From the NCBI GenBank assembly GCA_964016885.1, contig OZ024740.1, positions 327,174,001 through 327,238,000 of the forward strand: a stretch of 64,000 nucleotides of DNA. Direction: 5' to 3'. The translations under genes were made by a program, and so were the position numbers. Shown here piece after piece: positions 9,035-60,960 of this stretch (the first letter of the stretch is position 1; the number at the start of each line of letters is the position of its first letter). The notes under the pieces were generated by a model that saw only the letters and a program-made list of their open reading frames with translations, did not search any database and was not told the origin of the DNA. The stretch is from Eledone cirrhosa (lineage: Eukaryota).

Positions 9035-9167
<133 letters not shown>

Positions 9168-16131: not shown

Positions 16132-16222
16132 GTATTATATATATATATACATAGACACACACATACATATACACACGTATATACATACATACGTATATAC
16201 ATACATACATACATATATACAT

Positions 16223-35600: not shown

Positions 35601-35639
35601 TAACAGATGCTGTCGTTATTATAATTTTATTATTATTCA

Positions 35640-35850: not shown

Positions 35851-35867
35851 TCATCAGTTATTTCTAC

Positions 35868-36090
35868 TTGTTTCTACTTTAGGCACAAGGCCACCAATTA
35901 CCCAGTGCATTACTGGTACTTTATTTTATCGACCCCGTAAGGGTGAAAGGCCAAGTCAACCTCGGCGGGATTTGATCTGAGTTCAAATCCCGCCGAGGTT
36001 GACTTTGCCTTTCATCCTTATGGGGTCGATAAAATAAAGTACCAGTAATGCACTGGGTAATTGCTGGCCTTGTGCCTAAAGTAGAAACAA
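35868..36090. mobile_element. Head-to-head pair of 5'-truncated SINEs forming a ~108-bp-arm palindrome
   Basis: ...CCTCGGCGGGATTTGA TCTGAGT TCAAATCCCGCCGAGG... Confidence 0.92.
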
Positions 36091-36110
36091 TTATTATTAT
36101 TATCAGTAGT

Positions 36111-36562
36111 TATTGGAGGAATATGAAAGGTTGACGGGAGCAAAATTTAATCCGGAAAAGTTGGTGAGCTTGCAACTCGGCACCTGGAGAGGCAAGTCCA
36201 TGCCGTCCAACAGCGTCGTTAGGCGCTGGACAGACGGACCGGTAAAGTTGCTCGGGGTTTGGTTCGGGCCAGACCTCCAGGTGGACAAGAATTGGGACGA
36301 GGTGACGGGCAGGGTAGCCAGTCTCACCCAGAAATGGGCTGGGATGAAGCTATCACTGAAAGGTCGGGCGGAGGTGGCGAACACGTACATCGCGTCCGTC
36401 ATCTACTACCGTCTGACCGTCGTCCCTTGCCCCCGTTCGCGCCTCGCCATCTTGGAGCGGCTCCTCTTCAAATTCTTGTGGAGGGGTCAGGTTCCGCTGG
36501 TGAGGCGGTCCATCTGCTCTCAGCACCCTCTACGTGGAGGGCTGGGCATGCCGTGGCTAATG

Positions 36563-36564
<2 letters not shown>
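36111..36564 (+). mobile_element. Left part of the outer, 5'-truncated Tx1 element
   Basis: Encodes LEEYERLTGAK...GGLGMPWLM, nearly identical to ORF2 at 42895-46314. Preceded by TSD ATTATCAGTAGT (36099-36110). Confidence 0.92.
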
Positions 36565-36602
<38 letters not shown>

Positions 36603-36862
36603 TTTCTTTATTAACCACAAGGGTTTACATAAAGTAGACATTAAGGACAGTGCAGGACAATGCAGGACGGTACAAATGGGCATTTCTGCGTGTAAAAAAA
36701 GAAAAACAGAGGATGTAACAAAAATAACAATGAAAATAACAATGAAAAATTCCCCAATAGGGGGGAGACTTCAGAGGGACATTTGTGGAGAAAGCCCAGT
36801 AAAAAGCCACAATGACCCTGCCCACCTAGGCAAGTGCCCTCTCCCAGTTTTCCACCTTTAGT

Positions 36863-39800
36863 TTACAGATATATGCTCAGAGTCGGCCCATTCACTCGGG
36901 CCATTCTTGCTTCTCTCACCCATCTTTCAACAAAATGCTGGGAAGAGAGCACTTCCTTCTCTACTCTGATTTTCCTTTTCAAATGAAATTTGAAAAAGTC
37001 AATCAGAGCATCACCGAAGAGGTAAGTGCTCGTCTTCAGCCCTTTCAAACGTGTCCACCATACTATCTCTTTCGCCATGGCCACCAGACAGATAAAAACT
37101 GCCTGCCCTTCCCGGCTAAAGGAGGAGGGCGGGGCAATCCTCACGATAGACTCAGATGATAGCTGGATCCGTCCTAAACGCGACAGCAGGTGTTCGACAT
37201 AAACCCACAAGTCAGCAATTTTCGGACACTGGACGAGTGCGTGCAGGACGGTTTCGTCGCCCTGCGCGCATCTCGGACATGCCCGGCTGACGGCACCTCC
37301 ATGCCTGTAGAGTTTATCCCGAACTGGCAAGGCTCCTCGGTAGCACTGCCAGGCCAGAGATTTCTGGAAGTTGTCCATAGGCCCTGGCCCGAAAGTTCTT
37401 CCGAAGAGATTGGCTAGTTGATTTTCGTCGACGCCTAGAGTTTCCCCAAGTACGTCGTCGCTCTTCCCCTCCACTAATCCTCTATAGAACGCCGAGGTGG
37501 AGTTTCCACCGATCACATTGCCCGATTGGTCGAGGGCTGTGAGCGCCTGAAGACATTCCAGTCTCCAGGCGCTCCCTCTCGGTCTTCGCTTGATCCAGGA
37601 CTGCAGCTCCGTCAAGGAAACGAGCTGGGGAAAAACGCGTCTAGCAAACGGCGACCACACCTGATCACCGTCGAGGAAGAGGTGGAGATGTCGTAGCCTG
37701 AGCGCGTGCCTGCGCATCATCAGCAACGGCATGCCCAGCCCTCCACGTAGCGGGTGTTGACAACAGATGGACCGCCTGACCATCGGAGCACGTCCCTTCC
37801 ACAAAAAGCGAAAGAGCAAACGCTCCAGCGCAGTCAGGCGAGGCTTAGGACAAGGTACGACGGTTAGGCGGTAGCAGATGACAGACGCGATGTACGCGTT
37901 AGCCACCTCCGCTCGACCTTTCAGTGATAGCTTCCTCTCCGCCCATTTCTGGGTGAGAGAAGCCACCCTGCTCGTCACCTCGTCCCAGTTTTTGTCCGTC
38001 TGGAGGTCCGGACCGAACCAGACCCCTAGCAATTTAACCGGTCCGTCCGTCCAGCGCCCGACGACGCTGTTGGACGGCATGGACCTGCCTCTCCAGGTGC
38101 CGAGCTGCAGGCCCACTGACTTTTCCTGGTTGATCATTGCTCCTGTCACCGCTTCGTATTCTCTTAGTGCCGATCGCCTCGATGTGTTTGGCGTTCGACA
38201 CCACTACGGTGACATCGTCCGCATATGCTGACACGGATCTTCCGCATCCTAGTTCGCGCGGGACTCCCCTCAACGTCTCCAGTTTGTGCAGTAATGGCTC
38301 GAGCGTCAATACGTACAAGAGGGACGAGAGGGGACATCCTTGGCGGACCGAGCGCATGATGTTGAACGGTTCCGACAGGTGACCGTTTACTCTCACCACA
38401 GAGCAGATGTCGCTGTGCATGGCAGCGATCCAGCCTCTGAAGACGGGCCCAAAGCCAGCCGCCCTCAGGACTGCCGCTAGGTAACGATGGTCGACCCTAT
38501 CGAAAGCTTTCGACTGATCTAAATTGATCAAGGACCCACCCGTGCCAGGTTCCCTAGCTACCCTCTCTACGATGTATCGCATGAGGTGGAGGTTGTCGTG
38601 GATGGATCTGTCGGGAATGGCGCATGTCTGCGCCTCTCCCACCAGACCACTAACGACAAGCGCCAACCTCTTTGCTAGCACCTTGGCCAAAATCTTAAAC
38701 TCTGTGTTTAGCAGAGTTATGGGCCGGAAATTGTCTATGTTATCCCCCTTGTTCGGATCCTTTCTCAGCAGTGCCACCGCTCCTCGGCTCACAGAACTGG
38801 GAATTCTCCCGTTCTGTTGCCAGTTGCAGTAGACGTCCGCCAAGAGGCCTCCGAACAAGTCTGGCATCTGTACGTAAAGTTCATAGGGCAGACCATCCAA
38901 ACCAGGCGATTTACCCCTTGTGCAGCCAGTCATTGCCTCCCGTACTTCAGCGGCTGTTATCGACTTTTCGCAACACTTCGCCTCAGTGGCCGAGAGCCGC
39001 GGCAGTCCGTCGAGGTAGACACTAAAGTCCATCCCTCTACCCGGCCCCCCGCTGCCCCCGAACAGCTGAGCGAAGTGTCGCTGGAAAGCTTCACACATTT
39101 GCCCGGGATCGAGTAGCATGCGCCCGTCGTGGTCCACCAAAGACCGGATCGTGGCTTTGTTGCCACGACGCGCCTCCGCCACTCGGGCCCATTGAACGGC
39201 TTTCGTCCCCTCGTGTCTGAGAGCACGCACCCTAGCTCTGACAACGCAGCCTTCGTGCTTTGCATTGAAGAATTGGTCAAGGGCCAATTTCGCCGCAAGC
39301 ACGTCGGTCGCAATGCCTTTGCTAAGCGCCTCGTCTAATTTTCTAACTAGTTCTCCCTCTGCTCTATTTTTCTCTATTGCTAAAGCCTTACTAAACCTAA
39401 TCGATTCTATTCTAATCGCTCTTTTCAGAGCAAACCACCACTTGTTGTTGACGATGGCCCCCGTCAACGCCCGCTTAACTAGTTCGCTAATCCGGTCTCT
39501 GTAGGCCTTGCGCGCTGGTAAGGACGCGTTTAGCTTCCAGTAGCCGGGTCCTCGTCTATGAAGCCTATCTAAGTCAAGCACACAGGTCACGAATTTGTGG
39601 TCCGTGTAGCTGACTATCTTGAATTGTGGACAGCCTATGCTAGACCTATCTATTTCCCTACAAAATACTCTATCTAGATATGATCTGGATGACCCTATGC
39701 GGTTTGTCCAAGTCCACATTGGCACATTCGGGAAATCCAATCGGTACCTGTCAGACAGTTCAAAACGCCTGAGCAGGTTGGTGAGGCTCTTGCACCCTCC

Positions 39801-40277
39801 ACCCCTATCCGCTAATCCCACACAGTCCCAGCGTGCATCTAAGATCCCGTTCCAGTCGCCCACTAACACTAAAGAGCGGGACGTTCCAAGAAAGGTCTCC
39901 AGACGCCGGAAGAAATCAGGCCGCCCTGCTCCTGTCGGGGCATAGACGGCCACTAGCCTGAAAGCTTGCCCGTCTCCGCTGGTCACGTCCAGCACCACCA
40001 GCTTACCCTCTGGGTCCAGGAAGATGGCCCGTATGGCGAGATCCAAACCTCTCCGAAAAAGCACAGCAACTCCTCCACCCGATCCAGGACGGCTGGGAGA
40101 TGCGTACACATCGTAGCCGCCGAAGATCGGTGCGAAGGCCCGTGCTTCGGAGATTCTGGTCTCGCTGATGGCCACTACATCTATGTTTAGTGACCTGAGG
40201 TCGTTGAGCAGGTGACCCTGCTTCCATGACGACCCCAAGCCACGCGCATTTATGCTGCCTATTCTGAGTGAGGTCAT
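36863..40277 (-). pseudogene. Tx1-A ORF2 (APE endonuclease + RT + C-terminal zinc motif) with one frameshift near 38160
   Basis: SINARGL, ISET, GDWN, SYLDR, TDH (APE); PGLDG, FRPITLLN, KAFDRV, QGCPLS, YADD (RT); CPRC...HALVQC. Split into 747-aa and 428-aa frames. Confidence 0.93.
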
Positions 40278-40312
40278 GTTTAAAATAGAGTGGAAAAGAT
40301 GGGAAAGACCAC

Positions 40313-42409
40313 TTACCGTACTTTTGGTAGAGGAGGGATGGTTTTTACATCCCTTTTCACTTGATCGTCTGGTGAAGGGACCGTTGAATCGTCCCTTCGG
40401 CTGGTCGCCGGCTCTTCTAAGAGAATGTCTGAATATACTCTTCGATTGATGGTTCCTCCTAGGTCCCTGAAATCACCAACTGCGTTGGGGAATTTCGTTT
40501 TAATGTTTGTGTATTGTTTCTGTGCTATTTTTAGCAGTCTTATGTTAGTTGGCGTTTTGATTGGTGCTGGTATTATGTAGTCCTGTTGTGAAATGTCTGT
40601 GTGTTCAATTATGTAAGTCATTAGTTTCTTGTTGTGTGTGTTTATTGCCGTGCATTTGTTTTTCTGGGGGTGGGGTGTGGTTCTGCTATTTTCTTGTCGT
40701 TGTTGCTGGGTGTGTGTGTTTTGTTGTTGTGTTTGCGATGTTGGTGCTTGTGGTGGTGGTGTTGAAGGTGTTGTTGGCGGTGGGGTTGTCGCCGGTGGTG
40801 ATGGTGGTGCTGGTGTGGGTGGTGATGGTGTTGGTGGTGTTGCTGCTGTGGGTCTCTTTGCAGTAGACTTTACCCTTTTCTCATTTCTTTCCTCCCTTTT
40901 CAAAGGCGACGATGCGCTGCTTCTGCGTTTGTGCCTTCTTGCGACCTTTTGCCATCCCTCTCCCACCTCACACTCCATGTCTGATTCTGTAAGGTCGGGG
41001 AGGGGTACCAGCTCCACTCTTTCACTTGTTGTTGTTGGTGATGTTTGCACTGGAGTCTCTGTTGCAGCTGCATTTGGTATTGCTGTTGTTGTTGTTAATA
41101 TTTCCACTGCTGCTGCTGTCTTTGATTTCCGTGGAGTGGGTATGGGTGCCACGGACCTATCGTTCCTGGTTGCCGCTTGTCCTGTTGCTGGTAGCCGTGG
41201 AGCCGGATTCGGAAGGAGGGGGGTTTTCTCCTTTCTCAGGGTCTTCTCGTTGCAGAAGGCCCTGAGGTGAGTCTTCGATCCACAGCGAAAGCATTTCGGG
41301 CGTTTGCCCTCAACACTTATGGGCAGTTGAGTGCCGTTATCGAAGTCTATCACATCCGGGATAGCTTCGATGCACTCCTGGTTGGTTTGGATTAGCATCT
41401 CAATGGAGGAGCCGACCCAATCTTCTCTTACTTTTTTCTGTACTTGCAGTACAGTTGTTTTGTCCTCGATTCCGACGAGGACAGACGCGGCCAGCCAAGA
41501 AGGGGTCATTCCGGGGGGGACGTGGGTCAGTTTGACCCTCACAATTTTTTGCCCGCAGTAGGAGGGCACCAACACCATTTCCTCGCTCCTTAGGGTCACT
41601 ACTGATTGGGCCTTTGCCTCCTGGGGTGTGGCAAAAAGTACGTCTACGGTGGCGTATTTTTTGCCTCGGGTGATGTGCGTTTTCCGCTGCCACACAGACC
41701 CCAAGGCTTTTTGTATTTGGGCCTCTGTGGCTCTTTCCACCCTACGGGATTTTGTACTTACTGTACGGTACGTGACCGTACAGTGCTCTTGGGTTTCGAA
41801 AAAATTTTTCGCTGCCTTGCAGATTGCTCGGTGTCCGTTCTTTGTCACCATCTTCTTCGCTTCCTCTAATTCCTCATTTGTTATGAGGATTGTTTCCAAG
41901 TTTTTCGCAATACCTGCAAATGAGATTGGTTTTTCTCTGCTGTTGTTGTTGTCGTCAGAGCTGCTGGTACTTTTGTTGTTGCTGCAGGTACTACGACTAC
42001 TGCCTCCGCCGCTGTTGCTGTGGTTGTTGTTGGTGTTGCTGCTGCTAATGCTGTTGTTGTTTATGCTGCTGGTGATGCTGTTGCGGCTGCTACTGTTGTT
42101 TTCATTGTCACTGTTGCTGTTGTTATTACGGCTGCTACTGCTATTATTCCTGACGTCAGACGAATGAACTGGGTTTTCGTATTTCCCGCACACCTGTTTC
42201 GTCGCTGTCGTCGTAGTCGTGGAGAAACCTTGCACGCTTTGCACGAGACTTTTCTTTTCTTTCGTCACTTGCGAAAGAGAAGGGAGGGAGAGAGACACAT
42301 TTAAAGAAGGGAGGGAGAGAGACAATCTTCTCTCTGCTGTAGTGATGATTGAGGAAGAAGAAGACGGAATGAGTGGGAGTGACGTATGAAATTTCTTTTT
42401 CGTAGCCAT
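40313..42409 (-). CDS. Tx1-A ORF1, gag-like nucleic-acid-binding protein, 698 aa
   Basis: Upstream of ORF2. CCHC knuckle CFRCGSKTHLRAFC, low-complexity S/N and P/T linkers. Confidence 0.88.
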   Translation of the reverse strand: MATKKKFHTSLPLIPSSSSSIITTAERRLSLSLPSLNVSLSLPSLSQVTKEKKSLVQSVQGFSTTTTTATKQVCGKYENPVHSSDVRNNSSSSRNNNSNSDNENNSSSRNSITSSINNNSISSSNTNNNHSNSGGGSSRSTCSNNKSTSSSDDNNNSREKPISFAGIAKNLETILITNEELEEAKKMVTKNGHRAICKAAKNFFETQEHCTVTYRTVSTKSRRVERATEAQIQKALGSVWQRKTHITRGKKYATVDVLFATPQEAKAQSVVTLRSEEMVLVPSYCGQKIVRVKLTHVPPGMTPSWLAASVLVGIEDKTTVLQVQKKVREDWVGSSIEMLIQTNQECIEAIPDVIDFDNGTQLPISVEGKRPKCFRCGSKTHLRAFCNEKTLRKEKTPLLPNPAPRLPATGQAATRNDRSVAPIPTPRKSKTAAAVEILTTTTAIPNAAATETPVQTSPTTTSERVELVPLPDLTESDMECEVGEGWQKVARRHKRRSSASSPLKREERNEKRVKSTAKRPTAATPPTPSPPTPAPPSPPATTPPPTTPSTPPPQAPTSQTQQQNTHTQQQRQENSRTTPHPQKNKCTAINTHNKKLMTYIIEHTDISQQDYIIPAPIKTPTNIRLLKIAQKQYTNIKTKFPNAVGDFRDLGGTINRRVYSDILLEEPATSRRDDSTVPSPDDQVKRDVKTIPPLPKVR

Positions 42410-42894
42410 GTTGTTTTTTGTTTAAAATGAAATTTTGGGTACAAAACCCCAATAACTGGTTATTTAACCCCGAAGGGCCAAATAACGGACATAAAGACCC
42501 CTCTCACGAGGAGGAGGGTGTCTTTATCAACAATTTGGTTCAAGTTTTAAACAATTTACAATTGTTTTAACGGTTAAAAATTACTATACCTTACAGAGCC
42601 GAGCCTCCGTCAACCATGGCATTCAATAATAATAATAATAATGATTTCATTTATTGGCCACAAGGGCCGACATATAGGGGACAACACAATAGACAGGGAC
42701 AGTGGGGGTTTACATAGAGATCGAGTAAGTATAAATAACAAAAAACAAAATAACAATAAAAATACAACAATGAAAGTTCCCCAATAAGAGGGATCACCAC
42801 CCAGGGTTGACTCAAGCACCCCACCAGTCCTGAGCCACCCGACGCTCCTAGGGCACCCGGGAAGGGCACCCCTCTCCTTCTCGAATTCACCAGC

Positions 42895-45800
42895 CTACAG
42901 GCGCATGATCAGAGTAGGCCCACTCACGCGGGCCATTCTCGCCACATTCACCCACCTTTCAGTAAATGTACTGGGGGGCAGCACTTCTCTCTCCACCCTC
43001 ACCTTCCTTTCCAAGTGAAACTTGAAGAAGTTGATGAGGGATTGGCCGAAGAGAAAAGTGTCTGTCTTCAGTCCTTTCAACCTGGTCCACCATGCAACCT
43101 CTTTCGCTACTGCCACCAGGCAGAGGAAAATTTCCTGCCCTTCCTGACCAAAAGAAGGCGGCGGGTCAATCTTCACTATGGACTCGGACGATAGCCGGAT
43201 CCGTTCTACACGCGACAATAGCTGTTCGACATAACCCCACAAGTCAGCAATGCACGGACACTGGACGAGTGAGTGCAGAACGGTTTCGTCGCTCTGCGCG
43301 CATCTCGGGCAGGTTCGTCTGACAGCACTTCCGTGCCTGTAGAGTTTATCCCGAACCGGCAGCGCCCCCCGGTAGCACTGCCAAGCGAGGGATTTCTGGA
43401 AGTTATCCATCGTCCCCGGCTCGAAAGTCCTCCGGAACATACTGGTCAGTTCTACTTCGTTGACGCCTAGAGCCTCTCCTAGTACGTCATCGTACTTGCC
43501 CTCCACTAATCCTCTATAGAAATCTTGAGTGGAAGTTCCACTGACCGCATTGCCCACCTTGCAGAGTGCAGTGAGCGCCTGGCAACATTCCAGATGCCAG
43601 TCGCCCAGTCTCAGTCTCTTCTTGACCCAGGACTGCAGCTCAGTCAAAGAGATGAGCTGCGGAAAGGCCCGTCTAACAAACGGCGACCACACCTGTTCAC
43701 CTTTTAGGCAAAATATCTGGAGATGTCGCAGCCTCAGCGCATGTCTGCGCATCATTAGCCACGGCATGCCCAGCCCTCCACGAAGAGGGTGCTGGCAGCA
43801 GATGGACCGCCTCACCAACGGGACCCGTCCCCTCCACAAAAATTTGAAAAGGAGCCGTTCCAAATTGGCGAGGCGTGGACGGGGGCAAGGCACGACGGTC
43901 AGGCGGTAGTAGATGACGGACGCGATGTACGCGTTCGCCACCTCCGCCCGCCCTTTCAGTGATAGCTTTCTCTCAGCCCATTTCTGGGTGAGGTTGGCTA
44001 TCCTGCTCGTCACCTCGTCCCAATTCTTATCCACCTGGAGGTCTGGTCCGAACCAAACCCCGAGCAACTTTACCGGTCCGTCTGTCCAGCGCCCAACGAC
44101 GCTGTTGGACGGCATGGACTTGCCTCTCCAGGTGCCGAGCTGCAAGCCCACCGACTTTTCCGGGTTAAGTTTTGCTCCCGTCAACCTTTCATATTCCTCC
44201 AAATGGGGGCGGATGACCTCGATTTCCGAGGTGTCCGACACCATCACGGTGATGTCGTCCGCATAAGCGGACGCAGCCTTTCTACGTCCCGGTTCGAGCG
44301 GGATGCCCTGCAACAACTCCAGCTTCCGCAGTAGAGGCTCAAGAGTCAATACGTACAGAAGTGAGGAGAGAGGGCACCCTTGACGGACCGATCGAGAGAT
44401 CTGAAACGGTTCCGAGAGGTGGCCATTAACTTTGACCACCGAGTAGATGCCGCTGTACATTGCAGCGATCCAGCTTCTGAAGACGGGGCCGAAGCCAGCC
44501 GCCTCGAGGACAGCCTCCAAGTACCGATGGTCGACCCTATCGAATGCTTTCGATTGATCTAAATTGATCAGAGCCCCACCGAAGCCAAGTTTGCACCCAA
44601 CCCTCTCTATGATGTATCGCATGAGGTGGAGGTTGTCGTGTATGGACCTGGTCGGGATTGCGCAAGTTTGCGCCTCCCCAACCAAATCTTTGACGACAAG
44701 CGCCAACCTTTTCGCTAACACCTTGGCCAAAATCTTAAACTCTGTGTTGAGCAGGGTTATGGGCCTGAAATTATCTAGTGTGTCCCTCTTGTTCTCGTCT
44801 TTCCTTATCAGCGTCACTACGCCACGGCTCACAGAACTGGGAATGCTCCCGTTCTGCTGCCAGTTGCAGTAGAGCGCTTCGAGGAGATTGGAAAACAAGT
44901 CTGGCATATTTACGTAAAGCTCGTAGGGCAGACCATCCAAACCGGGTGACTTGCGACTCGAGCAGCCGACAAGGGCGTCCTGAATTTCGACTGATGTTAT
45001 CGGCTCTTCGCAGCGCTCAGCGTCGGCCGTCGAGAGGCGTGGCAAGCCGTCGAGGTAGGGACTGAAGTCCGCCGCCGTCTCCGACTCACCCATCCTCCCG
45101 AACAATCGAGCAAAGTGCTGGCGAAAGGCCTCACACATCTGCTTGGAATCGCTCAGTTCGTGTCCATCTCGATCCGTCAAAGACCGAATTGTGGTTTTAT
45201 TTCCACGCTGCGTCTCTGCAAAGCGAGCCCATCGGGCAGCTTTGGTTCCCTCGTTCCTCAGAGCACGCGCCTTAGCTCTGACAATGCAACCTTCGTGTTT
45301 CGCATTGAAGAAATGGTCTAGTGCCATTCTCGCCGCTAGCACGTCTGTTGCAATGCCACTACAAATAGCCTCGTCTAACTTAGCTATCAGCCCCTCCTCC
45401 TTTCTATTTTTCTCTATTGCTACTTCTTTGCTAAATCCTATCGAGGTTGCTCTAATCTCTCTTTTGAGTGCCCCCCACCACCTGTTGTTGACAACCCCCC
45501 CTGTCAACTTTTGCTTAACTAAGTTGTTGACCCGGTCCCTGTAAGCTTTACGTGCCGGAAACGACATGTTTAGCTTCCAGTAGCTAGGTCCTAACCTACG
45601 TGTCTTATCTAGGTCGACCATACAGATCACAAGCTTGTGATCTGAATAGGCAACCGTTTTAAAATGTGGACATCCTACACTATTTCTATCTCTTTTCCTA
45701 ATGAAAATCCTATCTATGTACGATCTAGATGACCCTATGCGATTGGTCCAGGTCCATACTGGCGCATTAGGGAAATCTAGTCGGTACCTGTCAGACAGTT

Positions 45801-46314
45801 GAAACTGGCTGATCAGGTACTTGAGGCTTTTGCACCCCCCGCTCCTATCAGATATTCCCACACAATCCCAGCGTGCTTCTAAGATGCCATTCCAATCCCC
45901 TATTAACAGTAAAGGGCGAGACGTAAGCAGAAAGTTTTCCAGGCGCCTAAAGAAGTCCGGCCGACCGGCCCCAGTAGGGGCGTAGACGGCCACCAGTCTA
46001 AAGGCACCACCTTCGCTATTGCTCACGTCCAGGACCACCAACTTTCCGTCAGGATCCCGGAAGATTGACCTTACCTCGAGATCCAGACATTTCCTAAACA
46101 GCACAGCCACTCCACCTCCCATTCCCGGCCGACTAACAGATGCAAAGATCTGATAATCGTCGAAAATCGGCGCCAGTGCGCGTGTGTCGGAAATTCTGGT
46201 CTCGCTGTTGGCAATTACATCCATTCCTAGTGACCTGAGGTCGTTGAGCAAGTGACCTTGCTTCCAGGGCGACCCCAGGCCACGAACATTTAAACTTCCT
46301 ACTCTTATGGCCAT
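42895..46314 (-). CDS. Tx1-B ORF2, intact 1139 aa APE-RT protein
   Basis: All APE and RT motifs in one frame (NVRGL, GDWN, SDH, KAFDRV, QGCPLS, YADD) plus C-terminal CPRC...H...C. Confidence 0.96.
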   Translation of the reverse strand: MAIRVGSLNVRGLGSPWKQGHLLNDLRSLGMDVIANSETRISDTRALAPIFDDYQIFASVSRPGMGGGVAVLFRKCLDLEVRSIFRDPDGKLVVLDVSNSEGGAFRLVAVYAPTGAGRPDFFRRLENFLLTSRPLLLIGDWNGILEARWDCVGISDRSGGCKSLKYLISQFQLSDRYRLDFPNAPVWTWTNRIGSSRSYIDRIFIRKRDRNSVGCPHFKTVAYSDHKLVICMVDLDKTRRLGPSYWKLNMSFPARKAYRDRVNNLVKQKLTGGVVNNRWWGALKREIRATSIGFSKEVAIEKNRKEEGLIAKLDEAICSGIATDVLAARMALDHFFNAKHEGCIVRAKARALRNEGTKAARWARFAETQRGNKTTIRSLTDRDGHELSDSKQMCEAFRQHFARLFGRMGESETAADFSPYLDGLPRLSTADAERCEEPITSVEIQDALVGCSSRKSPGLDGLPYELYVNMPDLFSNLLEALYCNWQQNGSIPSSVSRGVVTLIRKDENKRDTLDNFRPITLLNTEFKILAKVLAKRLALVVKDLVGEAQTCAIPTRSIHDNLHLMRYIIERVGCKLGFGGALINLDQSKAFDRVDHRYLEAVLEAAGFGPVFRSWIAAMYSGIYSVVKVNGHLSEPFQISRSVRQGCPLSSLLYVLTLEPLLRKLELLQGIPLEPGRRKAASAYADDITVMVSDTSEIEVIRPHLEEYERLTGAKLNPEKSVGLQLGTWRGKSMPSNSVVGRWTDGPVKLLGVWFGPDLQVDKNWDEVTSRIANLTQKWAERKLSLKGRAEVANAYIASVIYYRLTVVPCPRPRLANLERLLFKFLWRGRVPLVRRSICCQHPLRGGLGMPWLMMRRHALRLRHLQIFCLKGEQVWSPFVRRAFPQLISLTELQSWVKKRLRLGDWHLECCQALTALCKVGNAVSGTSTQDFYRGLVEGKYDDVLGEALGVNEVELTSMFRRTFEPGTMDNFQKSLAWQCYRGALPVRDKLYRHGSAVRRTCPRCAQSDETVLHSLVQCPCIADLWGYVEQLLSRVERIRLSSESIVKIDPPPSFGQEGQEIFLCLVAVAKEVAWWTRLKGLKTDTFLFGQSLINFFKFHLERKVRVEREVLPPSTFTERWVNVARMARVSGPTLIMRL

Positions 46315-46343
46315 GCTGGCAGGATGAATGGGAGAGGAAAGGT

Positions 46344-48246: not shown

Positions 48247-48481
48247 GTTTTTTTGAGAAAAAAAATTATTATTTTTCCAAAATAAAGTTCAAATATTTGG
48301 GCCAAAAGGCCCAAATATTATGAGTTATTCCTTCACAGGATACAAATGAATGTCTTATAATGCTTCAGCGGTACAAAAAAATAAACAATTCTCCACAATT
48401 AATCCTCAAAAAATTGCTTACTCACGGAGCTTCAAAAAACGTACATCCACTTTCGTCAATAATAATAATAATAATAATAAT

Positions 48482-50924
48482 AGAGTGAAGATGAAAAAAC
48501 AAAGGAATTCCCACAAGAAATCTACTTGGCAAGAGAACATCAATCGCCAAATAAACCTTCTCCGATCTGACATAGAAATTTTAACAAACTATAAAGTAGG
48601 TGAACATGTTAAACAAACTAAACTTAGAAAATTGAAAAGAAAGTACAGTATAAAATCAACAAGTGACATAGACATGCTGATAGAAATAATCAAGCAAAAA
48701 GTGTCGGCCAAAGCTGCTCGTATAAGGCGCTTTGAAAAACGATCTAGATTCTATAAGGTTAATAATATGTTCAGAAACAACCAAAGAAACTTCTACAGAA
48801 AAATTGGTAAGTCAACAATAACTGCTAAATCAATACCACCCAAGGAGGAAGTGCAAGAATTCTGGGAAAAGATCTGGGCCGAAGAAAAAGTTCATAACAT
48901 ACATGCCCCATGGATAGACAGACAAATGAAAGATACAGCTCACCTTGAGGAACAAATATGGGAAAATATAACAGTTGAACAGTTGCACTTGGCTCTAAGA
49001 AAAACCAGCAAATGGAAATCCCCAGGAAAAGACAAAATACAAAATATTTGGATAAATGCCTTCACAGAGTCTCATGAGCTGTTAGCCCAGCTTTACAATG
49101 AAATAGTTAAGGAGCCAGAAAAGATACCATCATGGCTAGTTAACGGCATTACATTCCTGCTTCCGAAGAATGATGAGACAAACAATCCCAAAAATTACAG
49201 ACGGATAACTTGCTTGACCACAATGTATACAATTTTAACATCAGTCCTAACTGAATATACATATGACGACCTGATAACAAATGACCTATTTCCCATTGAG
49301 CAGAAAGGGTGTAAACGAGGCTCATATGGCTGTAGGGATCAGCTTTTGGTTAACAAAATGATACTGGAAGATTGTCATAATAGACACAAAAATCTATCAA
49401 TTGCTTGGATAGATTATAAAAAAGCATTCGATAGTTTGCCACACAGTTGGATTGAAAAATGTTTAGAGATTTTCAAAATATCCCCCGTTGTCAGGAGGTT
49501 TTTGTCATTCAGTATGAAGACATGGAAAACGACACTCCTTTTGAATAGTGAAACAAAATCACTGGAAGCTGGAGAAGTTAATATTAATTGTGGAATTTTT
49601 CAGGGTGACTCTTTTTCACCGCTTTTATTCTGCATCGCACTTATACCATTAAGTAAAATGCTCAATGAAAATTCTTAACCATGCACAGAATGCATCACCC
49701 TAAGGCAGATATAGATAGAATATATCTCCCTAGGAAAGAAGGAGGACGTGGGTTAATCCAGTTAGACATTGCTTTGAAAACTGCAACAATTGGATTATCT
49801 ACATATCTAAGGGCATCACATGATTGGATGATCAAACTCGTTTTGAAACACGAAAGCATCAAAAGATCATATTCCATTACAAAAGATGCACAAAGATACA
49901 GTAATGGACTACAAATTTCAGAAGTCCCATTTACTGCTGAAATGGAAAACACAGAAAAAGCAAAGCAGGTAAAAGTAACTGCAAAGAAAGAACTGCTACA
50001 GAAACTGGCTAAGAAATGGCAAGAAAAGCCTCTGTATGGAAAATACCCAGAACGAGCTAACAATCCTGATGTTGACAAAACTTTAACCCATCAGTGGTTG
50101 GCATCCTCTGGACTGAAATCGGAGACTGAAGGACTGATTATATCAGCACAAGATCAGTGTCTGCCAACAAAAAATTACCAAGCCAACATAATAAAAAATG
50201 GATGCAGCCCATTATGCCGTGTATGCAAAAAACAACCAGAGACCATTGACCATATAATTTCAATGTGCAGTCCTATAGCTCTAACCGAATACCTAAACAG
50301 GCATGACAGAGGTGCACAATATATACATTGGATAATGTGTAAGCATTTTGACCTGCCCCATCAAAAGAATTGGTGGGAGCATCAACCACCTCCCATACTT
50401 GAAAAAGATCACATCTCAATCTTGTGGAACTTTAGCATCCAAACAGACCGAAAAATAGATGCAAATAGACCTGATATAATATTGAAGGACTTTAAAAAGA
50501 GGGTATGCCTGCTAATTGATATGTCCGTTCCAATAGACAAGAATGTATCTATAAAAACATTTGAAAAATTGAGCAAGTATAAGGACCTGGAGATAGAATT
50601 TGGAAAAATGTGGAAATTGAGAACTAAAACAATACCAGTGGTTGTAGGCGCTCTGGGAATGATACCTAAGGGGTCTAATGATTACTTATCGCAAATCCCA
50701 GGAAACCCGCGTATAGGAGAAATACAAAAGATAGTACTAATGGGAACTGCCCATAGACTAAGGAAGATTCTGTCAATATAAGTACATCACAGGTCTAACC
50801 ACTAAAGATGCATGTGTGAGTATGTATGTTCTTCCTTGAACATGGCGGACCTTGTTGTCTCTTGAGGTCACTGGTTGTGACTTGGTGATAACTCGTATGA
50901 ACATAAAGCAAGATAAATGCAACT

Positions 50925-50926
<2 letters not shown>
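48482..50926 (+). mobile_element. R4/Dong-type RLE retrotransposon (family 1), 5'-truncated, with an internal RT deletion
   Basis: WKSPGKD, EQKGC, DYKKAFDS, GIFQGDSFSP, then a jump at ~49670 to HHPKADIDRIYL. CRVC...HIISMC and NRPDII...D...K..KY follow, then a (TAA)n tail. Confidence 0.92.
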
Positions 50927-50968
<42 letters not shown>

Positions 50969-50969
<1 letters not shown>

Positions 50970-52740
50970 GCCTGGAGATCTTCAGGGTGGCAGACAACAT
51001 CAGACAATTGCTGGGCAGGAGTATGGTGTCCTGGGAGACAGAGTTGACATCAACTGGAGTATCCTTGGAAAGCGTGAAGATCAAGAGAGGTATCTTCCAG
51101 GGAGATAGCCTGTCCCCTCTGTTGTTTGTCCTTGCCCTGATGCCCTTGACCATTATGCTGCGAAAAGTGAGAGCAGGATACAAGTTGGGAAGGGGAGAGC
51201 TTACCATCAATCACCTCCTCTTCATGGACGATCTTAAGCTCTTCGGGAAAAGTGAGACGGAGTTGGATGTGCTTGTTGACACTGTCCGTATTTTCAGCAA
51301 TGATATATGTATGCAGTTTGGTATTGGTAATTGTGGAGTCATTGTGATGAGGAGGGGTAGGTTGAGCAGAAGTAACGGGATCCAGATACCAACAGATGAA
51401 ATGATAAAGGAAATTGACTCTGAGGAAGGATACAAGTATTTGGGCGTTCTGGAGGCTGATGGCATAAAGAACAAAAAAATGAAGGAATTGTTAAGAACTG
51501 AATACATTCGGAGAGTAAGGAGCGTATTGAAGTCACATCTGAACAGCAGAAATGCCATAAGCGCAGTAAATTCCCGAGCTGTGTCTATTATTAGGTACAG
51601 TGCGGGAATTCTGAGATGGAATGTTGCTGAACGAAAAGAAATGGATAGGAAGACTAGGAAGCTATTGACTATCTACAACATGTTCCACAAGAGGACTGAT
51701 GTCGATAGACTCTACCTAAGGAGATCTGAGAGTGGAAGAGGTCTTATCAGCATAGAGGACTGTGTTCAGATGGAGAAAAACAACCTATACAAATACGTGA
51801 CCTATAGTAAGGAGCCAATGCTCAGAACTGTACTGAAGGAGGGGACAGTAGGCCAGGGGATGTCCAAGGAGGAAATAACATCAAGGAGGAAGAGCAGCCT
51901 TAAGGGAAAATCCCTTCTTAGTACCTTCTTTGAGAAAACTGAATTTAGAGATCCACAGACATGGAACTGGTTGAGAAGAGGAGACCTCAAAAAGGCTACA
52001 GAAGGAATGCTAATGGCTGCGCAGGAGCAGGCCCTCAAAACGAAGTGGTTCAAGCACCATATTTACAAGGAGGAGGCTAGCCCACTGTGAAGGATCTGTG
52101 GAGAGAGAGAGGAGACTGTGGCTCACATTGTGTCCGAGTGTAAACACCTAGCCCAGACCCACTATAAGGGCTGGAGACACGATGTGATGGGCAGGGTGAT
52201 CCACTGGCACCTGTGCAAAGTAAACAATTTTCCACATTCTGAGAAATGGTATGAGCATAGGCCAGAGGCGGTGATGGAGAACAATCAGGTGAAGGTGCTG
52301 TGGGATTTTAGGATACAGACGGACAAAAAACTGGAACACAATAGACCTGACCTGGTGGTTGTGGACAAGGAAAAAAGATCGTGTCTGATTGTGGATGTGG
52401 CCTGCCCGTTCGACACAAGAGTGCAAGAGAAGGAGAGGGAGAAAATTAACCGATACCAGGACCTAAAGTGGGAGGTGAAAAGGATTTGGAACTGCCATGA
52501 AGTCAAAGTGATCCCGATTGTCATAGGCGCACTGGGGACTATCTCCAAAAGTTTCCAGGGATGGTTAAAGAAAATCGGCCCCTTCACGCTTTTTGGAACG
52601 CTCCAAAAGGCATGCTTGCTTGGAACAGCAAGAACCCTCCGATACGTCCTGAATATCTGAGGCTGCAGGTAGTGGCTTGATATTCAATCCAACGGACTTT
52701 CCAGTTAACCAACATCAATGACTGAGATTCAAGGAATAAC
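50969..52740 (+). mobile_element. R4/Dong-type family 2, copy a (5'-truncated)
   Basis: GIFQGDSLSP, HLLFMDD, YKYLG, NRPDLVV RLE domain. Premature TGA at 52088. (TAA)n tail. Confidence 0.93.
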
Positions 52741-52743
52741 AAC

Positions 52744-52778
<35 letters not shown>

Positions 52779-52779
<1 letters not shown>

Positions 52780-52955
52780 TGTTTCTACTTTAGGCACAAG
52801 GCCAGCAATTACCCAGTGCATTACTGGTACTTTATTTTATCGACCCCGTAAGGATGAAAGGCAAAGTCAACCTCGGCGGGATTTGAACTCAGATCGTAAA
52901 GGGACGTAACTATGCTGGAAAGCATGGCGTCCGACCCTCTACCGATACTGCCAAT
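52779..52955 (-). mobile_element. SINE inserted in the (AAT)n spacer
   Basis: Near full-length reverse-complement copy between two Dong copies. Confidence 0.92.
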
Positions 52956-52956
52956 A

Positions 52957-55420
52957 TAATGTTCGACAACAACCAGAAGATGCTGTTTGGACAGCTTGAA
53001 GGGAAAGAAAGAGGCAACGACTTGATCCCTGAGGCGGAACAAACTAAAACATTCTGGAGAGGAATATGGGAGCAGGATGTTAAACATAATGACCAGGCAG
53101 TGTGGATTGAGACAGTACAGAAGGAGATTAGTGAACAGGCACACCAACAAACTGATTTGAGTATCACAGTTGAAACTCTTAAGGGGCAGGCCAAAAAACT
53201 AACCAACTGGAAATCACCAGGCCCAGATGGTGTGCAGGGGTATTGGATTAAAAATATAACATCCCTCCACCCGAAACTGACAACCATGTTCAATGACTGC
53301 TTGATGTCAGGTGAGGTACCAGAGTGGTTGACAAAGGGTACCACAGTTCTGATAATGAAAGACCGAATCAAGGGTAATGATGTTACCAACTATAGACCTA
53401 TCACATGTCTGTCCGTAATGTGGAAACTGTTGACAAGCATTATGTCTGAGGAAATCTACCATCACCTCCACACAAACAACTTGTTACCGGACGAACAGAA
53501 AGGATGCCGAAAAAAGTCACGTGGTACAAAGGACCAGTTACTCATTGATAAGATGGTAATGAGGAATTGCAAGAGGAGACACACTGGTCTTGCCATGGGA
53601 TGGATAGACTACAAAAAGGCATTTGACATGGTGCCTCATTCTTGGATCACCAAAAGCCTGGAGATCTTCAAGGTGGCAGATAACATCAGACAGTTGTTGG
53701 GCAAAAGTATGAAGTCCTGGGAAACAGAGTTAACATCAACTGGAGAATCCTTGGGAAGCGTGAAGATCAAGAGAGGTATCTTCCAGGGAGATAGTCTGTC
53801 CCCTCTGTTGTTTGTCCTTGCCCTGATGCCCCTGACCAGTGTACTGCGAAAAGTGAGAGCAGGATACAGGTTGGGAAAGGGAGGGCTTACCATCAATCAC
53901 CTCCTCTTCATGGACGATCTTAAGCTCTTCGGAAGAGTGAGAAGGAGTTGGATGTGCTTGTTGACACTGTCCGTATTTTCATCAATGATATGTGTATGCA
54001 ATTTGATATTAGTAATTGTGGAGTCATTGTGATGAGGAGGGGTAGGTTGAGCAGAAGTAACGGAATCCAGGTACCAACAGGTGAGATGGTAAAGGAAATT
54101 GACTCTGAAGAAGGATACAAGTATTTGGGCGTTCTGGAGGCTGATGAAATCAAGAACAAAAAAATGAAGGAATTGATAAGAACTGAATACATTCGGAGAG
54201 TAAGGAGCGTATTAAAGTCACATCTGAACAGTAGGAATGCCATAAGTGCAGTAAATTCCCGAGCTGTGTCTATTATTAGGTACAGTGCGGGAATTCTAAG
54301 ATGGAATGTTGCTGAACAAAAAGAAATGGATAGGAAGACTAGGAAGCTATTGACTATCTACAACATGTTCCACAAGAGGAGTGATGTCGATAGACTCTAC
54401 TTAAGGAGATCTGAAGGTGGAAGAGGTCTTATCAGCATAGAGGACTGTGTTCAGATGGAGAAAAACAACCTACACAAATACGTGACTGATAGTAAGGAGC
54501 CAATGCTCAGAACTGTACTGAAGGAGGGGACAATAGGCCAGGGGATGTCCAAGGAGGAAATAACATCAAGGAGAAAGAGCAGCCTTCAGGAAAAATCCCT
54601 TCATAGTACCTTCTTTGAGAACACTGAATTTAGAGATCCACAGACATGGAACTGGTTGAAAAGAGGAGACCTTAAAAAGGCTACAGAAAGAGTGTTAATG
54701 GCTGCGCAGGAGCAGGCCCTCAAAACGAAGTGGTTGAAACACCATATTTACAAGGAGGAGGCTAGCCCACTGTGAAGGATCTGTGGAGAGAGAGAGGAGA
54801 CTGTGGCTCACATTGTATCCGAGTGTAAGCACCTAGCCCAGACTCACTATAAGGGGTGGAGACATGATGTGATGGGCAGGGTGATCCACTGGCGCCTATG
54901 CAAAGTAAACAATTTACTTCTGAGAAGTGGTATGAGCATAAGCCAGAGGCGGTGATAGAAAACGATCAGGTGAAGGTGCTGTGGGATTTTAGGATACAGA
55001 CGGACAAGAAACTGGAACACAATAGACCTGACCTGGTGGTTGTGGACAATGAAAAAAGATCGTGCCTGATTGTGGATGTGGCCTGCCCATTCGACACGAG
55101 AGTGGAAGAGAAGGGGTGGGAGAAAATTAACCGATACCAGGACTTAAAGTGGGAGGTAAAAAGGATTTGGAACTGCCATGAAGTCAAAGTGATCCCGATT
55201 GTCATAGGCGCACTAGGGACTATCTCAAAAGGTTTCCGGGGATGGTTAAAGAAAATTGGCCCCTTCACGCTTTTTGGAACGCTTCAAAAGGCATGCTTGC
55301 TGGGAACAGCAAGAACCCTCCGATACGTCCTGTAAATATCTGAGGCTGCAGGTAGTGGCTTGATATTCATTTCAACAAACTTTCCAGTTAACTAACATCA
55401 ATGACTGAGACTCAAAGAGT
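52957..55420 (+). mobile_element. R4/Dong-type family 2, copy b
   Basis: Complete RT region with frameshifts near 53935 and 54915, TGA at 54773, RLE domain, (TAA)n tail. Confidence 0.93.
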
Positions 55421-55429
55421 AATAACAAC

Positions 55430-55459
<30 letters not shown>

Positions 55460-55460
<1 letters not shown>

Positions 55461-56297
55461 GCCTTCATGAAAAATCCCTTCATAGTACCTTCTTTGAGAA
55501 AACTGAATTCAGAGATCCACAGACATGGAACTGGTTGAAAAGAGGAGACCTTAAAAAGGCTACAGAAGGAATGCTAATGGCTGCGCAAGAGCAGGCCCCA
55601 AAACGAAGTGGTTGAAACACCATATTTACAAGGAGGAGGCTAGCCCACTGTGCAGGATCTGTGGAGAGAGAGAGGAGACTGTGGCTCACATTGTATCCGA
55701 GTGTAAGCACCTAGCCCAGACTCACTATAAGGGCTGGAGACATGATGTGATGGGCAGGGTGATCCACTGGCACCTATGCAAAGTAAACAATTTACCACAT
55801 TCTGAGAAGTGGTATGAGTATAAGCCAGAGTGGGTGATAGAAAACGATCAGGTGAAGGTGCTGTGGGATTTTAGGATACAGACGGACAAGAAACTGGAAC
55901 ACAATGAACCTGACCTGGTGGTTTTGGACAAGGAAAAAAGATCGTGCCTGATTGTGGATGTGGCCTGCCCATTCGACACGAGAGTGCAAGAAAAGGAAAG
56001 GGAGAAAATTAACCGATACCAGGACTTAAAGTGGGAGGTAAAAAGGATTTGGAACTGCCATGAAGTCAAAGTGGTCCCGATTGTCATAGGCGCACTGGGT
56101 ACTATCTCAAAAAGTGTCCAGGGATGGTTAAAGAAAATTGGCCCGCCACGCTTTTTGGAACGCTTCAAAAGGCATGCTTGCTGGGAACAGCAAGAACCCT
56201 CCGATACGTCCTGAATATCTGAGGCTGCAGGTAGTGGCTTGATATTCATTTCAACAAACTTTCCAGTTAACTAACATCAATGACTGAGACTCAAAGA
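55460..56297 (+). mobile_element. R4/Dong-type family 2, copy c (short 3' fragment)
   Basis: SPLCRICGEREETVAHIVSEC and the RLE domain, with frameshifts and a (TAA)n tail. Confidence 0.93.
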
Positions 56298-56319
56298 ACA
56301 ATAATAATAATAATAATAA

Positions 56320-56441
56320 TGAATTTATTGTGTAAAGTGCTCAGGTGCACTACAACTCGTCAAAGGCGTATGTATAGTACATAGAATAATACACAAATGT
56401 CAGGGAAGTGAATAGTGTATGAGTCATGGTATACATGTGTA
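56320..56441 (-). mobile_element. Short 3' tail of an unidentified retroposon with (ATT)n end
   Basis: Minus strand ...GTTGTAGTGCACCTGAGCACTTTACACAATAAATTC(ATT)n. Unrelated to flanking Tx1 or Dong sequence. Confidence 0.6.
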
Positions 56442-57365
56442 GATGCGCAGACACGCGCTGAGGCTGCGGCATCTCCAGATATTCTGCCTAAACGGTGAAC
56501 AGGTGTGATCGCCGTTTGTCAGACGGGCCTTTCCGCAGCTCGTTTCTTTGACTGAGCTGCAGTCCTGGGTGACTGGCATCTGGAATGTTGCCAGGCACTC
56601 ACTGCCCTCTACCAGGCGGGCAATGCGGTCAGTGGAACTTCCACTCTCGAGTTCTATAGAGGATTAGTGGTGGGAAAGTGCTGTCAGACGGACCTGCCTG
56701 AGATGCGCGCAGAGCGACGAAACCGTTCTGCACGCACTCGTCCAGTGTCCGTGCATTACTGACTTGTGGAGTTATGTTGAACAGCTGTTGTCGCGGGTAG
56801 AACAGATCCGGCTCTCGGCCGAGTCCATAGTGAAGATCGACCTGCCGCCTTCTTTTGGCCAGGAAGGGCAGGCAATTTTCCTCTGTCTGGTGGCAGTAGG
56901 GAAAGAGGTTGTATGGTGGACGAGGTTGAAAGGACTGAAGACAGACACTTTTCTCTTCGGCCAATCCCTCATCAACTTTTTCGAGTTTCACTTGGAAAGG
57001 AAGGTGAGGGTGGAGAGAGAAGTGCTGCCCCCCAGTACATTTGCTGAAAGGTGGGTGAATGTGGCGAGAATGGCCCGTGTGAGTGGGCCTACTCTGGTCA
57101 TGCGGCTGTAGGTAGGTAAATTTGAGGAGGAGAAGGGTTCCCTTCCAGGGTGTTCTCGAAGCGTCGGGTCGTTCAGGATTGGTGGGGTACCTGAGCGAAC
57201 CCTGGGTGGTCATCCCCCTATTGGGGAATTTTTTCTTGTTGTAATTTTATTGTTACTTTGTTATTGTTATTCATATTGTTTACTCGATTTTTCTGTAAAA
57301 CCCCACTGTCCCAGTCTTTTGTATTGTCCCCTATATGTCGGCCCTTGTGGCCAATAAATAAAATC
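56442..57365 (+). mobile_element. Right part of the outer Tx1 element
   Basis: Resumes GATGCGCAGACACGCGCTGAGG (MRRHALRLRHL) exactly where 36564 stopped. 3'UTR as in Tx1-B. Followed by TSD ATTATCAGTAGT (57366-57377). Confidence 0.93.
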
Positions 57366-59244
57366 ATTATCAGTAGTACCAGTAACAGCAGCAACAGTAG
57401 TAGTAGTAGTTTTTGTTGTTTTATTAGTAGTAGTCTTTTACACTGTACGGACATATTTTTAGAACGCTCCGAATGAACTGGAATTTTACCACATTAACTG
57501 AGTGAAAGTTTTCTATTTTCAGATTATTTTCAAACAGGAAAACGTACAAACTTTTGGACATTTTGCCCTAACGCTTGAAGTGAACAGAAAATCTGTGTTT
57601 AGACATATGTTAATTTATTTTTTGTTGTTTACATCACTTTTCAGTATGGCTTTGCGTGCTAGAGCATAAGGAAACGCCCCCAAGAAAACTAACATTACAT
57701 TTTACAAAACAGTTAATCATTCAATCAAGTTTCCGTAACTGATGAAACCAGTCATTAGGGTACCACTTAAGTGTGTACATCATGTCATTTTAGTGGACCT
57801 TAGAAATGCTTGCTGGTGCCCATCTCCTCTCCAAACACCCGGGTGACGATATAACGTGTATTTAGATATTGGGTAACCGTAGTTCGGTATTGTATTTAAG
57901 TTTCTTCAAATGACTTTGCTCTATTTCAATATGCACGTTAGATAATGCAATATCTGGTATTGAAATAACGTTTCTTTAAATTGATTTACTCTACTTTCAA
58001 ACAGACAGTGGATAATGGTACGTTCGGTTTTGAAATAATTATCTTTAAAATCCTGGATATCAGTACGTCCGGTACTGATATAATAGTTTATTTCCTGACA
58101 CAGCTAAAAACACATATTAGAAAGCGAATCCAATTAAATAGTTAGACAGATATTTTATCAAATAAAAGAATAACGCAATTTTAACAAATGAAAATATTAA
58201 TTTACACGACGAAAATACGTTAACAACAACACCAACAACATATCTTTCGTTGGTGCTAGAGAAACAAAAAAAAAAAAGAAGACGATAATTAAAAACGTGG
58301 TAGTGAATTGTTACAAAAGTAAGTATTACTTTGCCTGAGAGATCTATCTTAGAATGAGAAAGGGAGAGAGGTTTTTCACTTGACTTAAGAACTGCTGAAG
58401 AAACCTCACATCGATGCGTGGAGCGATGTGGTTTTCATCCATCCAGGCATGACATAACATACGTGCTAAATCCTCAAGACTGAGGTCGAGCGAGTTGGCG
58501 CGTCGAATTGGAGTGCCACACAACTTTTGTATAGATAGGCGATATATTATTATGTATTTCTTAATGTCTTCTTACTATTTTCACCCATTCACTTGGTGTG
58601 AATACCCTTCCGTTTCATTTTTGTTGTTTCGTTTATGTTGAACTGTCCTCAACATCTTGGGCTATTGTGGTTCCGAAATCCTCATCATCACCCTCATCAT
58701 CATATTTTACTTTTTGAAGTTCATATACACTACCGAAGCTATTTTTTGAATCTAAAGGGGAAATGAAATAGATTTGTAGTTATAGACTTTTGAGTTTTAT
58801 AAAAATCTTATTGATATTTTTCTTTGATTATAGTCACTTTCATGGATCGCAGTATTATGAACTTCACACAAGGAAGTTTTTTTTTCTGATTTTCCTATAA
58901 TTACAGAGACAGTTCTTCAGTCCATAATCCACAACCTCGATATTTTTATTACAAGGTTTCTGTAGCGTTAACAGAATTTATCTTTTTGGGTGGAGGGTTC
59001 TTTCTTTCAACTTTTTTCCCATGAAAAGTTATATATATATATTGGACAAGACACATTGCTTTATGTGTATAAAACTTGGATATGTCGTCTTTTATTGTGA
59101 TATTAGGAAGTGTCGGTGATATATTCTAATCCATTTCTATTTGCATACGTTGAGAAGGAATCACACATTCTCGACAACGTTTTCTTTTCTGGAGTAGGCT
59201 TGTATAATTTATTTTTATGCTGGAGGTCACCATCTATTATTACT

Positions 59245-60324: not shown

Positions 60325-60475
60325 TGGATTGGCAGTATCGATAGAGCATCGGATAACACGCTTCGGAGCATAGAGTAACGTCCCTTTACATTCTGAGTTC
60401 AAATCCCGTCGAGGTTAGGTTTGCTCATGATCCTTACTGGGTCAATAAAATAAAGTACGAGTTACGCGCTGGGGT
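60325..60475 (+). mobile_element. SINE copy, 3' part missing
   Basis: GGATTGGCAGTATCG...CTGAGTTCAAATCCCG. Confidence 0.8.
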
Positions 60476-60489
60476 CTTTTTCCTCCAGC

Positions 60490-60930: not shown

Positions 60931-60960
60931 AACCCTTGGAATCATTATTATCATCATTTG

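Follow-up and report, generated by a model that had tools for sequence, protein, structure and literature searches.

A split L1/Tx1-like LINE in Eledone cirrhosa with eight end-to-end copies, likely from repeated strand-specific insertion into renewable (AAT)n/(ATT)n

Insertion into repeats is a standard low-harm strategy of transposable elements (TEs) (PMC4640811; this and all other papers are cited for the portions of their text that were available). Among long interspersed nuclear elements (LINEs), Tx1 families target (TC)n, (TTC)n, (TTCC)n, and (TTTC)n (PMC4494074, in which the criterion is a target preference in >20% of genomic flanks), and Dong is reported to insert into (TAA)n in insects, molluscs, and cnidarians (PMC7998251 and PMC3812793, of which the latter, unlike the former, puts Dong under the apurinic/apyrimidinic endonuclease [APE] type). 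Pairs of LINEs and short interspersed nuclear elements (SINEs) with shared 3' ends are described, and SINEU was likely moved by Tx1-Mar (PMC4494074, PMC3747384). Modular, uninterrupted arrays of mixed families joined by microsatellites are known in plant Mutator-like elements (MULEs), as the SaTars of guayule and rice (PMC5907723). In Octopus vulgaris, published analyses describe recent activity of Dong-R4 and L1-Tx1 families as well as TE hotspots (PMC13282606, PMC9115989); the available portion of PMC13282606 does not use the word "nested." Here we describe a 64,000-bp stretch of Eledone cirrhosa DNA (contig OZ024740.1, positions 327,174,001 to 327,238,000; hereafter, the window), in which an L1/Tx1-like LINE, element A, is split by a 19,877-bp insert of eight elements, none of which interrupts another. 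The eight inserts are two full-length Tx1-like LINEs (B and C), a SINE (F), and a 121-bp tail (I), all on the minus strand, together with four truncated R4/Dong-like LINEs of the restriction-like endonuclease (RLE) type (D, E, G, and H), all on the plus strand. With a probability of roughly 0.78, we conclude that this structure arose by repeated strand-specific, target-primed insertion into a renewable (AAT)n/(ATT)n repeat.

The Tx1-like elements resemble Kibi, Koshi, and crocodilian Tx1 elements, which target (TC)n, (TTC)n, and (TTCC)n/(TTTC)n, respectively (PMC4494074), in having two open reading frames (ORFs), an APE and a reverse transcriptase (RT), an ORF1 with a CCHC knuckle, and insertion into a simple repeat with a target-site duplication (TSD). 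They differ in that (ATT)n, the target here, is not listed for Tx1 in the available text, and in that membership of the clade is tentative, the RT tree having no named Tx1 reference. D, E, G, and H resemble R4/Dong LINEs (PMC7998251, PMC3812793) in that an RT is followed by a C-terminal CCHC finger and a PD..D..K motif, the best solved match is to R2 proteins, and the 3' ends carry (AAT)n; D, E, and H also have (AAT)n at the 5' end. They differ in that all four are 5' truncated, so that any N-terminal Myb/SANT part would lie outside the copies, and in that the target is shared with an unrelated APE family. Like a SaTar, the array is a mixed-family series of end-to-end elements joined by microsatellite (0 of 8 interrupted; seven tracts), but SaTars consist of MULE DNA transposons with terminal inverted repeats, mostly in (TA)n, for which recombination is proposed (PMC5907723), whereas the units here are six that encode RT, a SINE, and a tail, and not MULEs. 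In addition, the units here likely make the repeat as their own tail, unlike SaTars. As in the SINEU/Tx1 pairs, the last 30 nucleotides of the SINE resemble the ends of A, B, and C, and both SINE and LINEs are ATT tailed, which would fit trans-mobilization, although the stretch of similarity is short.

By itself, the locus is a tidy example of known microsatellite targeting plus target renewal by tails and not a new system. What is likely new is an ATT-targeting Tx1-like family, its likely SINE partner, and the use of opposite strands of one repeat by two clades. We found no paper on such a family, on its SINE partner, or on mixed APE/RLE retrotransposon arrays, in a search outside of which lay most subscription journals, Repbase, and supplements, so the target may be on record.

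The outer LINE and the boundaries of its insert

Element A spans 36111 to 57365 and is itself 1,375 bp long. Its left part (36111 to 36564, plus strand) is 5' truncated and corresponds to ORF2 codons ~716 to 866 of C; it begins directly after ATTATCAGTAGT, its final letters are ...CCGTGGCTAATGAT at 36564, and the sequence up to this stop reads ...GGCTAATGAT. The right part (56442 to 57365, plus strand), which has lost 22 and 167 bp in two deletions and contains one stop codon, begins with GATGCGCAG and ends with AATAAAATC, followed by the 12-mer ATTATCAGTAGT (57366 to 57377, plus strand). The intact sister copy C reads GGCTAATGATGCGCAG uninterrupted across the break point, and therefore the halves of A join in register, with GAT duplicated (3 bp). 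The original prediction of a Tx1 fragment broken at 36564 and continuing at 56442 is thus correct at both coordinates. It had also placed a 12-bp TSD around the whole unit, within the ATT tail of a SINE, and this too is borne out: ATTATCAGTAGT has two exact matches in the window, at 36099 to 36110 and 57366 to 57377, each abutting an end of A, and the left copy lies in the ATT tail of a 5'-truncated SINE (35976 to 36110, plus strand), the target of the outer LINE. Because two near-matches alone are not rare in shuffles (15 of 100 reached two matches at ≤1 mismatch), the evidence for the TSD is the exact position of the two copies.

Compared with C, A-left differs at 33 of 452 columns (7.3%) and the coding part of A-right differs at 43 of 670 (6.4%; Fisher P = 0.63), while the difference of both halves from B is ~17 to 21%. 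Since the two halves are equally near C, the suggestion that they might come from different subfamilies finds no support, as far as it is testable.

An assembly artefact stitched through the (AAT)n tracts would be in keeping with the observations that all junctions are of low complexity, that all parts are high copy, and that no junction-spanning contig is present among the matches listed. However, a mis-join would not return to the exact split base after 19.9 kb with both a 3-bp duplication and a matching 12-bp TSD, and the sister copies are 3.6 to 5.7% apart and are therefore not collapsed duplicates. We consider such an artefact extremely improbable, although an erroneous join lying wholly within the interior is less easily dismissed. 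The contigs placed on 42300 to 59200 came from 4 of the 24 runs listed. One contig of run X15 equals 57382 to 59200 with 1 difference and ends at the repeat edge, and it is uninformative on the fill; loose contig ends also fall at 52955 (the edge of F) and 52959 (the start of G). The summed depth of X15 is ~1e4 to 5e5 over the LINEs versus ~58 in the unique flank, which we read as "high copy" only. Run X1 likewise has single-copy depth over the unique flank (57.4 to 59.2 kb). A contig of run X1 from another copy of the family has a joint at 43753, the position in C that is homologous to the break in A; this is a single entry and may be chance.

AAT tracts, strand orientation, and growth of the array

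From left to right, the (AAT)12 tract at 36565 to 36600 (this and all further tracts are on the plus strand) separates A-left from B (36601 to 42624, minus strand), a full-length L1/Tx1-like LINE with an open ORF1 (702 codons stop to stop) and an ORF2 (APE, RT, and zf-RVT) with one frameshift near 38170. The (AAT)6 tract at 42625 to 42642 leads to C (42643 to 48457, minus strand), a full-length LINE of the same family as A, in which ORF2 is open for 1150 codons (42895 to 46347) and ORF1 has one frameshift near a poly(T) run at ~46860; B and C are ~77% identical over ORF2. After the (AAT)8 tract at 48458 to 48481 comes D (48482 to 50926, plus strand), a 5'-truncated R4/Dong-like RLE LINE of family 1 with an internal deletion of ~160 codons at 49670, and after the (AAT)14 tract at 50927 to 50968 comes E (50969 to 52734, plus strand), 5' truncated and of family 2, in a subfamily distinct from that of G and H. 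The tails of E and SINE F lie back to back in the AATAACAAC(AAT)12 tract at 52735 to 52779. F (52780 to 52955, minus strand) is near full length, and G (52959 to 55420, plus strand), 5' truncated and of family 2, has a 5' end without a full tract. The AATAACAAC(AAT)10 tract at 55421 to 55459 separates G from H (55460 to 56296, plus strand), again 5' truncated and of family 2, which is either a separate insertion or a tandem duplicate of the 3' part of G. Finally, the AAC(AAT)7 tract at 56297 to 56320 separates H from I (56321 to 56441, minus strand), the 3' tail of a high-copy retroposon, which ends in AATAAATTC plus ATT repeats. The count of eight is in line with the at least seven later insertions originally predicted. 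The AAT run at 48458 was ruled out as coding sequence: it separates the 5' end of C from D, and the similarity of D to P0095 begins five codons past it.

Seven of the nine junctions are (AAT)6-15 tracts, every one of which reads AAT on the same strand; outside the nest, AAT tracts of at least 3 units make up 0.33% of the window. The claim that the internal elements are separated only by (AAT)n therefore holds at these seven junctions but not at F/G (52953 to 52961), where only AATATAATG is found, or at I/A-right, where there is only the GAT duplication. Orientation follows class: the ATT-tailed inserts are minus in 4 of 4 cases and the RLE inserts plus in 4 of 4, which random strand choice would give with a probability of ~1/128. 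Each of the four RLE inserts has (AAT)n at its 3' end; D, E, and H carry it at the 5' end as well, G shows just ATAAT there, and no two of the four 5' ends are the same. Of the seven Tx1-type 3' ends examined in the window, six lead into an ATT run and one is too decayed to judge; the end at 32006 was assigned by its 3' motif only.

One possible explanation for these features is that there was no real targeting and that ATT- and AAT-tailed elements passively piled up in a gene-poor, low-recombination region, the tracts being their tails. The window is rich in decayed LINE relics and SINEs, and passive accumulation has been proposed for the Drosophila Waldo elements (PMC3812793). However, passive pile-up predicts inserts within the 19.9 kb of earlier elements, whereas 0 of 8 interrupt another; it leaves the tracts at the 5' ends of B, C, D, E, and H unexplained by tails alone; and it does not account for an orientation fixed by class. 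We give it hardly any weight.

In contrast, strand-specific insertion into a renewable repeat would produce the array in four steps. The outer LINE would first have entered the ATT tail of the SINE, leaving the 12-bp TSD. The 121-bp tail I would then have inserted on the opposite strand at the near-cognate site TAATGAT in A, where the 3-bp duplication is found, and would have laid down an (AAT)n tail. This tract would next have become the target of two guilds, the APE-type Tx1-like LINEs with their likely SINE partner and the RLE-type R4/Dong-like LINEs; since the former read ATT on their own strand they would lie on the minus strand, and since the latter read TAA they would lie on the plus strand. 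Every insertion would add a tail and duplicate part of the tract, so that targets would multiply and the array would grow without inserts interrupting each other. From this anatomy we infer target-primed reverse transcription into the microsatellite, each class on its own strand. The renewal of the target by each insertion, which the original prediction had proposed, fits the anatomy, with a mechanism that is deduced rather than observed.

The array had also been suggested to act as a safe harbor or a source of PIWI-interacting RNAs (piRNAs). Loci that are piRNA sources or transposon traps hold mixed families in both orientations. The array likewise contains mixed families in both orientations, which would suit its retention by the host in such a role, but selfish targeting accounts fully for the anatomy, and we regard host retention as very unlikely. 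Most likely, the array has no host function and arose neutrally as a by-product of selfish targeting.

Several points weigh against repeated insertion into a renewable repeat. Among the matches listed for 42300 to 59200, where repeats dominate and there are >300,000 further pieces, no locus-specific junction, empty site, or intermediate allele is present. F/G is an internal junction without a tract, the 3-bp GAT duplication, taken alone, is weak, H could be a tandem duplicate of G, and at single copies an RNA-templated tail is indistinguishable from a pre-existing target. The closest Tx1-like relative that we fetched, with ~41% amino acid identity to the ORF2 of C, is represented by 45 loci (L072 to L113 and L116 to L118; contigs CAXXMW01), all from one assembly, and 0 of the 45 have an (ATT)4 or longer tract. 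These loci form pure head-to-tail self-arrays with a period of ~6.4 to 6.8 kb on contigs of up to 94 kb, which argues against generality. The ATT target therefore looks lineage-specific, with this window as its only support. The CAXXMW01 contigs are filed as a bacterial metagenome-assembled genome and are probably misbinned host DNA. Most of the 45 loci have an AATAAA(A)ATCA motif ~500 bp past ORF2, like the 3' ends in the window. A more distant relative, L114 (29% identity), is flanked by two U1 small nuclear RNA matches (2095 to 2258 and 9020 to 9196) and is possibly a U1-targeting element.

Classification of the elements and order of insertion

The A/B/C-type ORF2 has an N-terminal APE endonuclease and an RT (Pfam PF03372, PF00078, and PF13966), and there is a separate ORF1, which is the anatomy of the L1 group and Tx1. 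The best solved match of the C ORF2 is human L1 ORF2p (E = 1e-55), and ORF1 resembles CCHC/RNA-binding clusters, which we take as a lead only. In an RT tree of 28 rows without a named Tx1 reference, B, C, and P0001 form a clade that is sister to the group holding L076. When D, E, and H are aligned, the RT is followed by a CCHC finger and a PD..D..K nuclease motif, and G matches E there. A profile of D/E/G/H-type sequences plus six homologues matched only R2-type chains among solved structures, and all four elements lie in (TAA)n repeats, as expected of R4/Dong. Their anatomy and target suggest that these four elements, to which the original prediction gave no class, are R4/Dong-like; the homologues retrieved included no named reference, and no Dong-like loci were found in the genome-contig collection searched. 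The last 30 nucleotides of the SINE are similar to the 3' ends of A, B, and C (shuffle P, ~0.003 to 0.004, with our own scoring parameters and scored after the similarity was noticed), which suggests, as a lead, that the Tx1-like LINE family may mobilize the SINE.

E differs from G by 5.7% and G from H by 3.6%. The private changes are 19 synonymous and 9 non-synonymous in E, 3 and 10 in G, and 5 and 12 in H. A TGA at the first zinc-finger cysteine is common to E (52088 to 52090) and G (near 54773), whereas H has TGC; that E and G share it, although G is nearer to H, may reflect conversion or coincidence. These values bear on whether the array arose partly from tandem duplication or unequal exchange between tracts, with H derived from G and possibly E involved as well. 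The small distance between G and H, their near-neutral private changes, and the exchange hinted at by the common TGA are consistent with such an origin. H, however, has neither that TGA nor the indels of G, the mostly synonymous differences of E from G and H (19/9) are the mark of a separate source lineage, and none of B, C, D, F, and I is present in duplicate in the array. A contribution from duplication is unlikely overall, though it is the most serious of the alternatives.

For insertion into a renewable repeat, seeding by the 121-bp retroposon tail, placed originally at 56320 to 56441, is the most parsimonious start, and I is most likely the first insert, because only its 5' end touches A without a tract and because its site is the sole RATRAT-type hexamer in A. 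This site, TAATGAT, is the only such match on either strand of the 1,375 bp, for a pattern chosen post hoc. The landing pad itself is older than I: A lies in the ATT tail of a SINE, near a further SINE, an ATT run, and the Dong-like relic at 35223 to 35609, so the seeding claim probably holds for the insert but not for the origin of the pad. Alternatively, a Dong-like copy could have split A first and seeded the tract, with I arriving later at the tract edge. In favor of this order, TAAT is part of the site, and the decay of H and G (2.1% and 1.7%) equals that of A (2.5%) within error. This order, however, needs I to have inserted without duplication exactly between the tail and GATGCG, and runs X1 and X2, in which I is abundant, contain almost none of the E/G/H family; we consider it quite improbable. 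In these two runs, which are from other organisms, bin depth is 92,854 and 7,069 for I but 53 to 720 and 19 to 253 for bins specific to E/G/H, and the family of I is therefore older or more widely shared.

Structure fixes the order only as SINE, then A, then I, then the other seven, each of which could have entered any tract. Decay dating covered A, C, E, G, and H (and not B, D, F, or I), with 575 sites for E/G/H estimated from 251 codons. Private non-synonymous changes per site are 2.5% (1.5 to 3.8) in A, 2.1% (1.1 to 3.6) in H, 1.7% (0.8 to 3.2) in G, 1.6% (0.7 to 3.0) in E, and 1.3% (0.6 to 2.3) in C. Dating by divergence thus agrees with A being oldest, but all intervals overlap and the order of the seven is not resolved, so the "readable insertion history" of the original prediction was overclaimed. 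The weak gradient H ≥ G ≥ E ≥ C, running leftwards from I, is a hint of growth from the seed.

The end of I has marginal similarity to Tx1-like ends (P = 0.01 to 0.11). No second copy of I was found within the window, and its 18-base motif had 0 matches in viral contigs; a lone Streptomyces match to this motif was taken as chance. A 3' stem-loop in I or in the LINE and SINE tails was no better than in shuffles (z, -1.5 to +0.2), and Rfam gave 8 weak matches, 0 of them at the gathering score.

A broader proposal, which we offer tentatively and think doubtful, is that an APE Tx1-like family with its partner SINE and an RLE Dong-like family have come by convergence to use opposite strands of a single trinucleotide repeat, each supplying targets to the other across the genome. 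If so, we would expect heavy-tailed modular arrays that grow from one end, serve as dated tapes of family activity, and play a major part in creating the TE hotspots of this lineage. If general, the process would explain TE hotspots by positive feedback, the tail making the target, shared across clades; it would also add (ATT)n to the Tx1-type targets and identify the LINE with which a very abundant SINE is likely paired. Because the ORF2 of C is open for 1150 codons, its endonuclease is assayable for ATT specificity.

Other features of the window

A smaller and older plus-strand array lies at 60312 to 61640 and consists of an ATT run, a SINE, a Tx1-like relic, and three SINEs, the last four of these each being ATT tailed. 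Smaller arrays nearby suggest a routine process, and since the families are high copy, feedback by itself should yield a few long arrays. Decayed Tx1-like relics occupy 29905 to 33650, one on the minus strand and one on the plus strand with an ATT tail, together with a minus-strand 3' end at 32006 beside an AAT-rich tract; relics with ATT tails are also present near 32006 and 33630. Decayed Dong-like relics are found at 35223 to 35609 and 16221 to 16574, of which the first ends just before an ATT run (35616 to 35637) that is followed by a SINE. Two 5'-truncated SINE copies lie head to head at 35856 to 36097 and form a fold-back with arms of ~110 bp and a center near 35975. A 22-bp minisatellite with 53.5 copies and 92% matches extends from 22898 to 24072.

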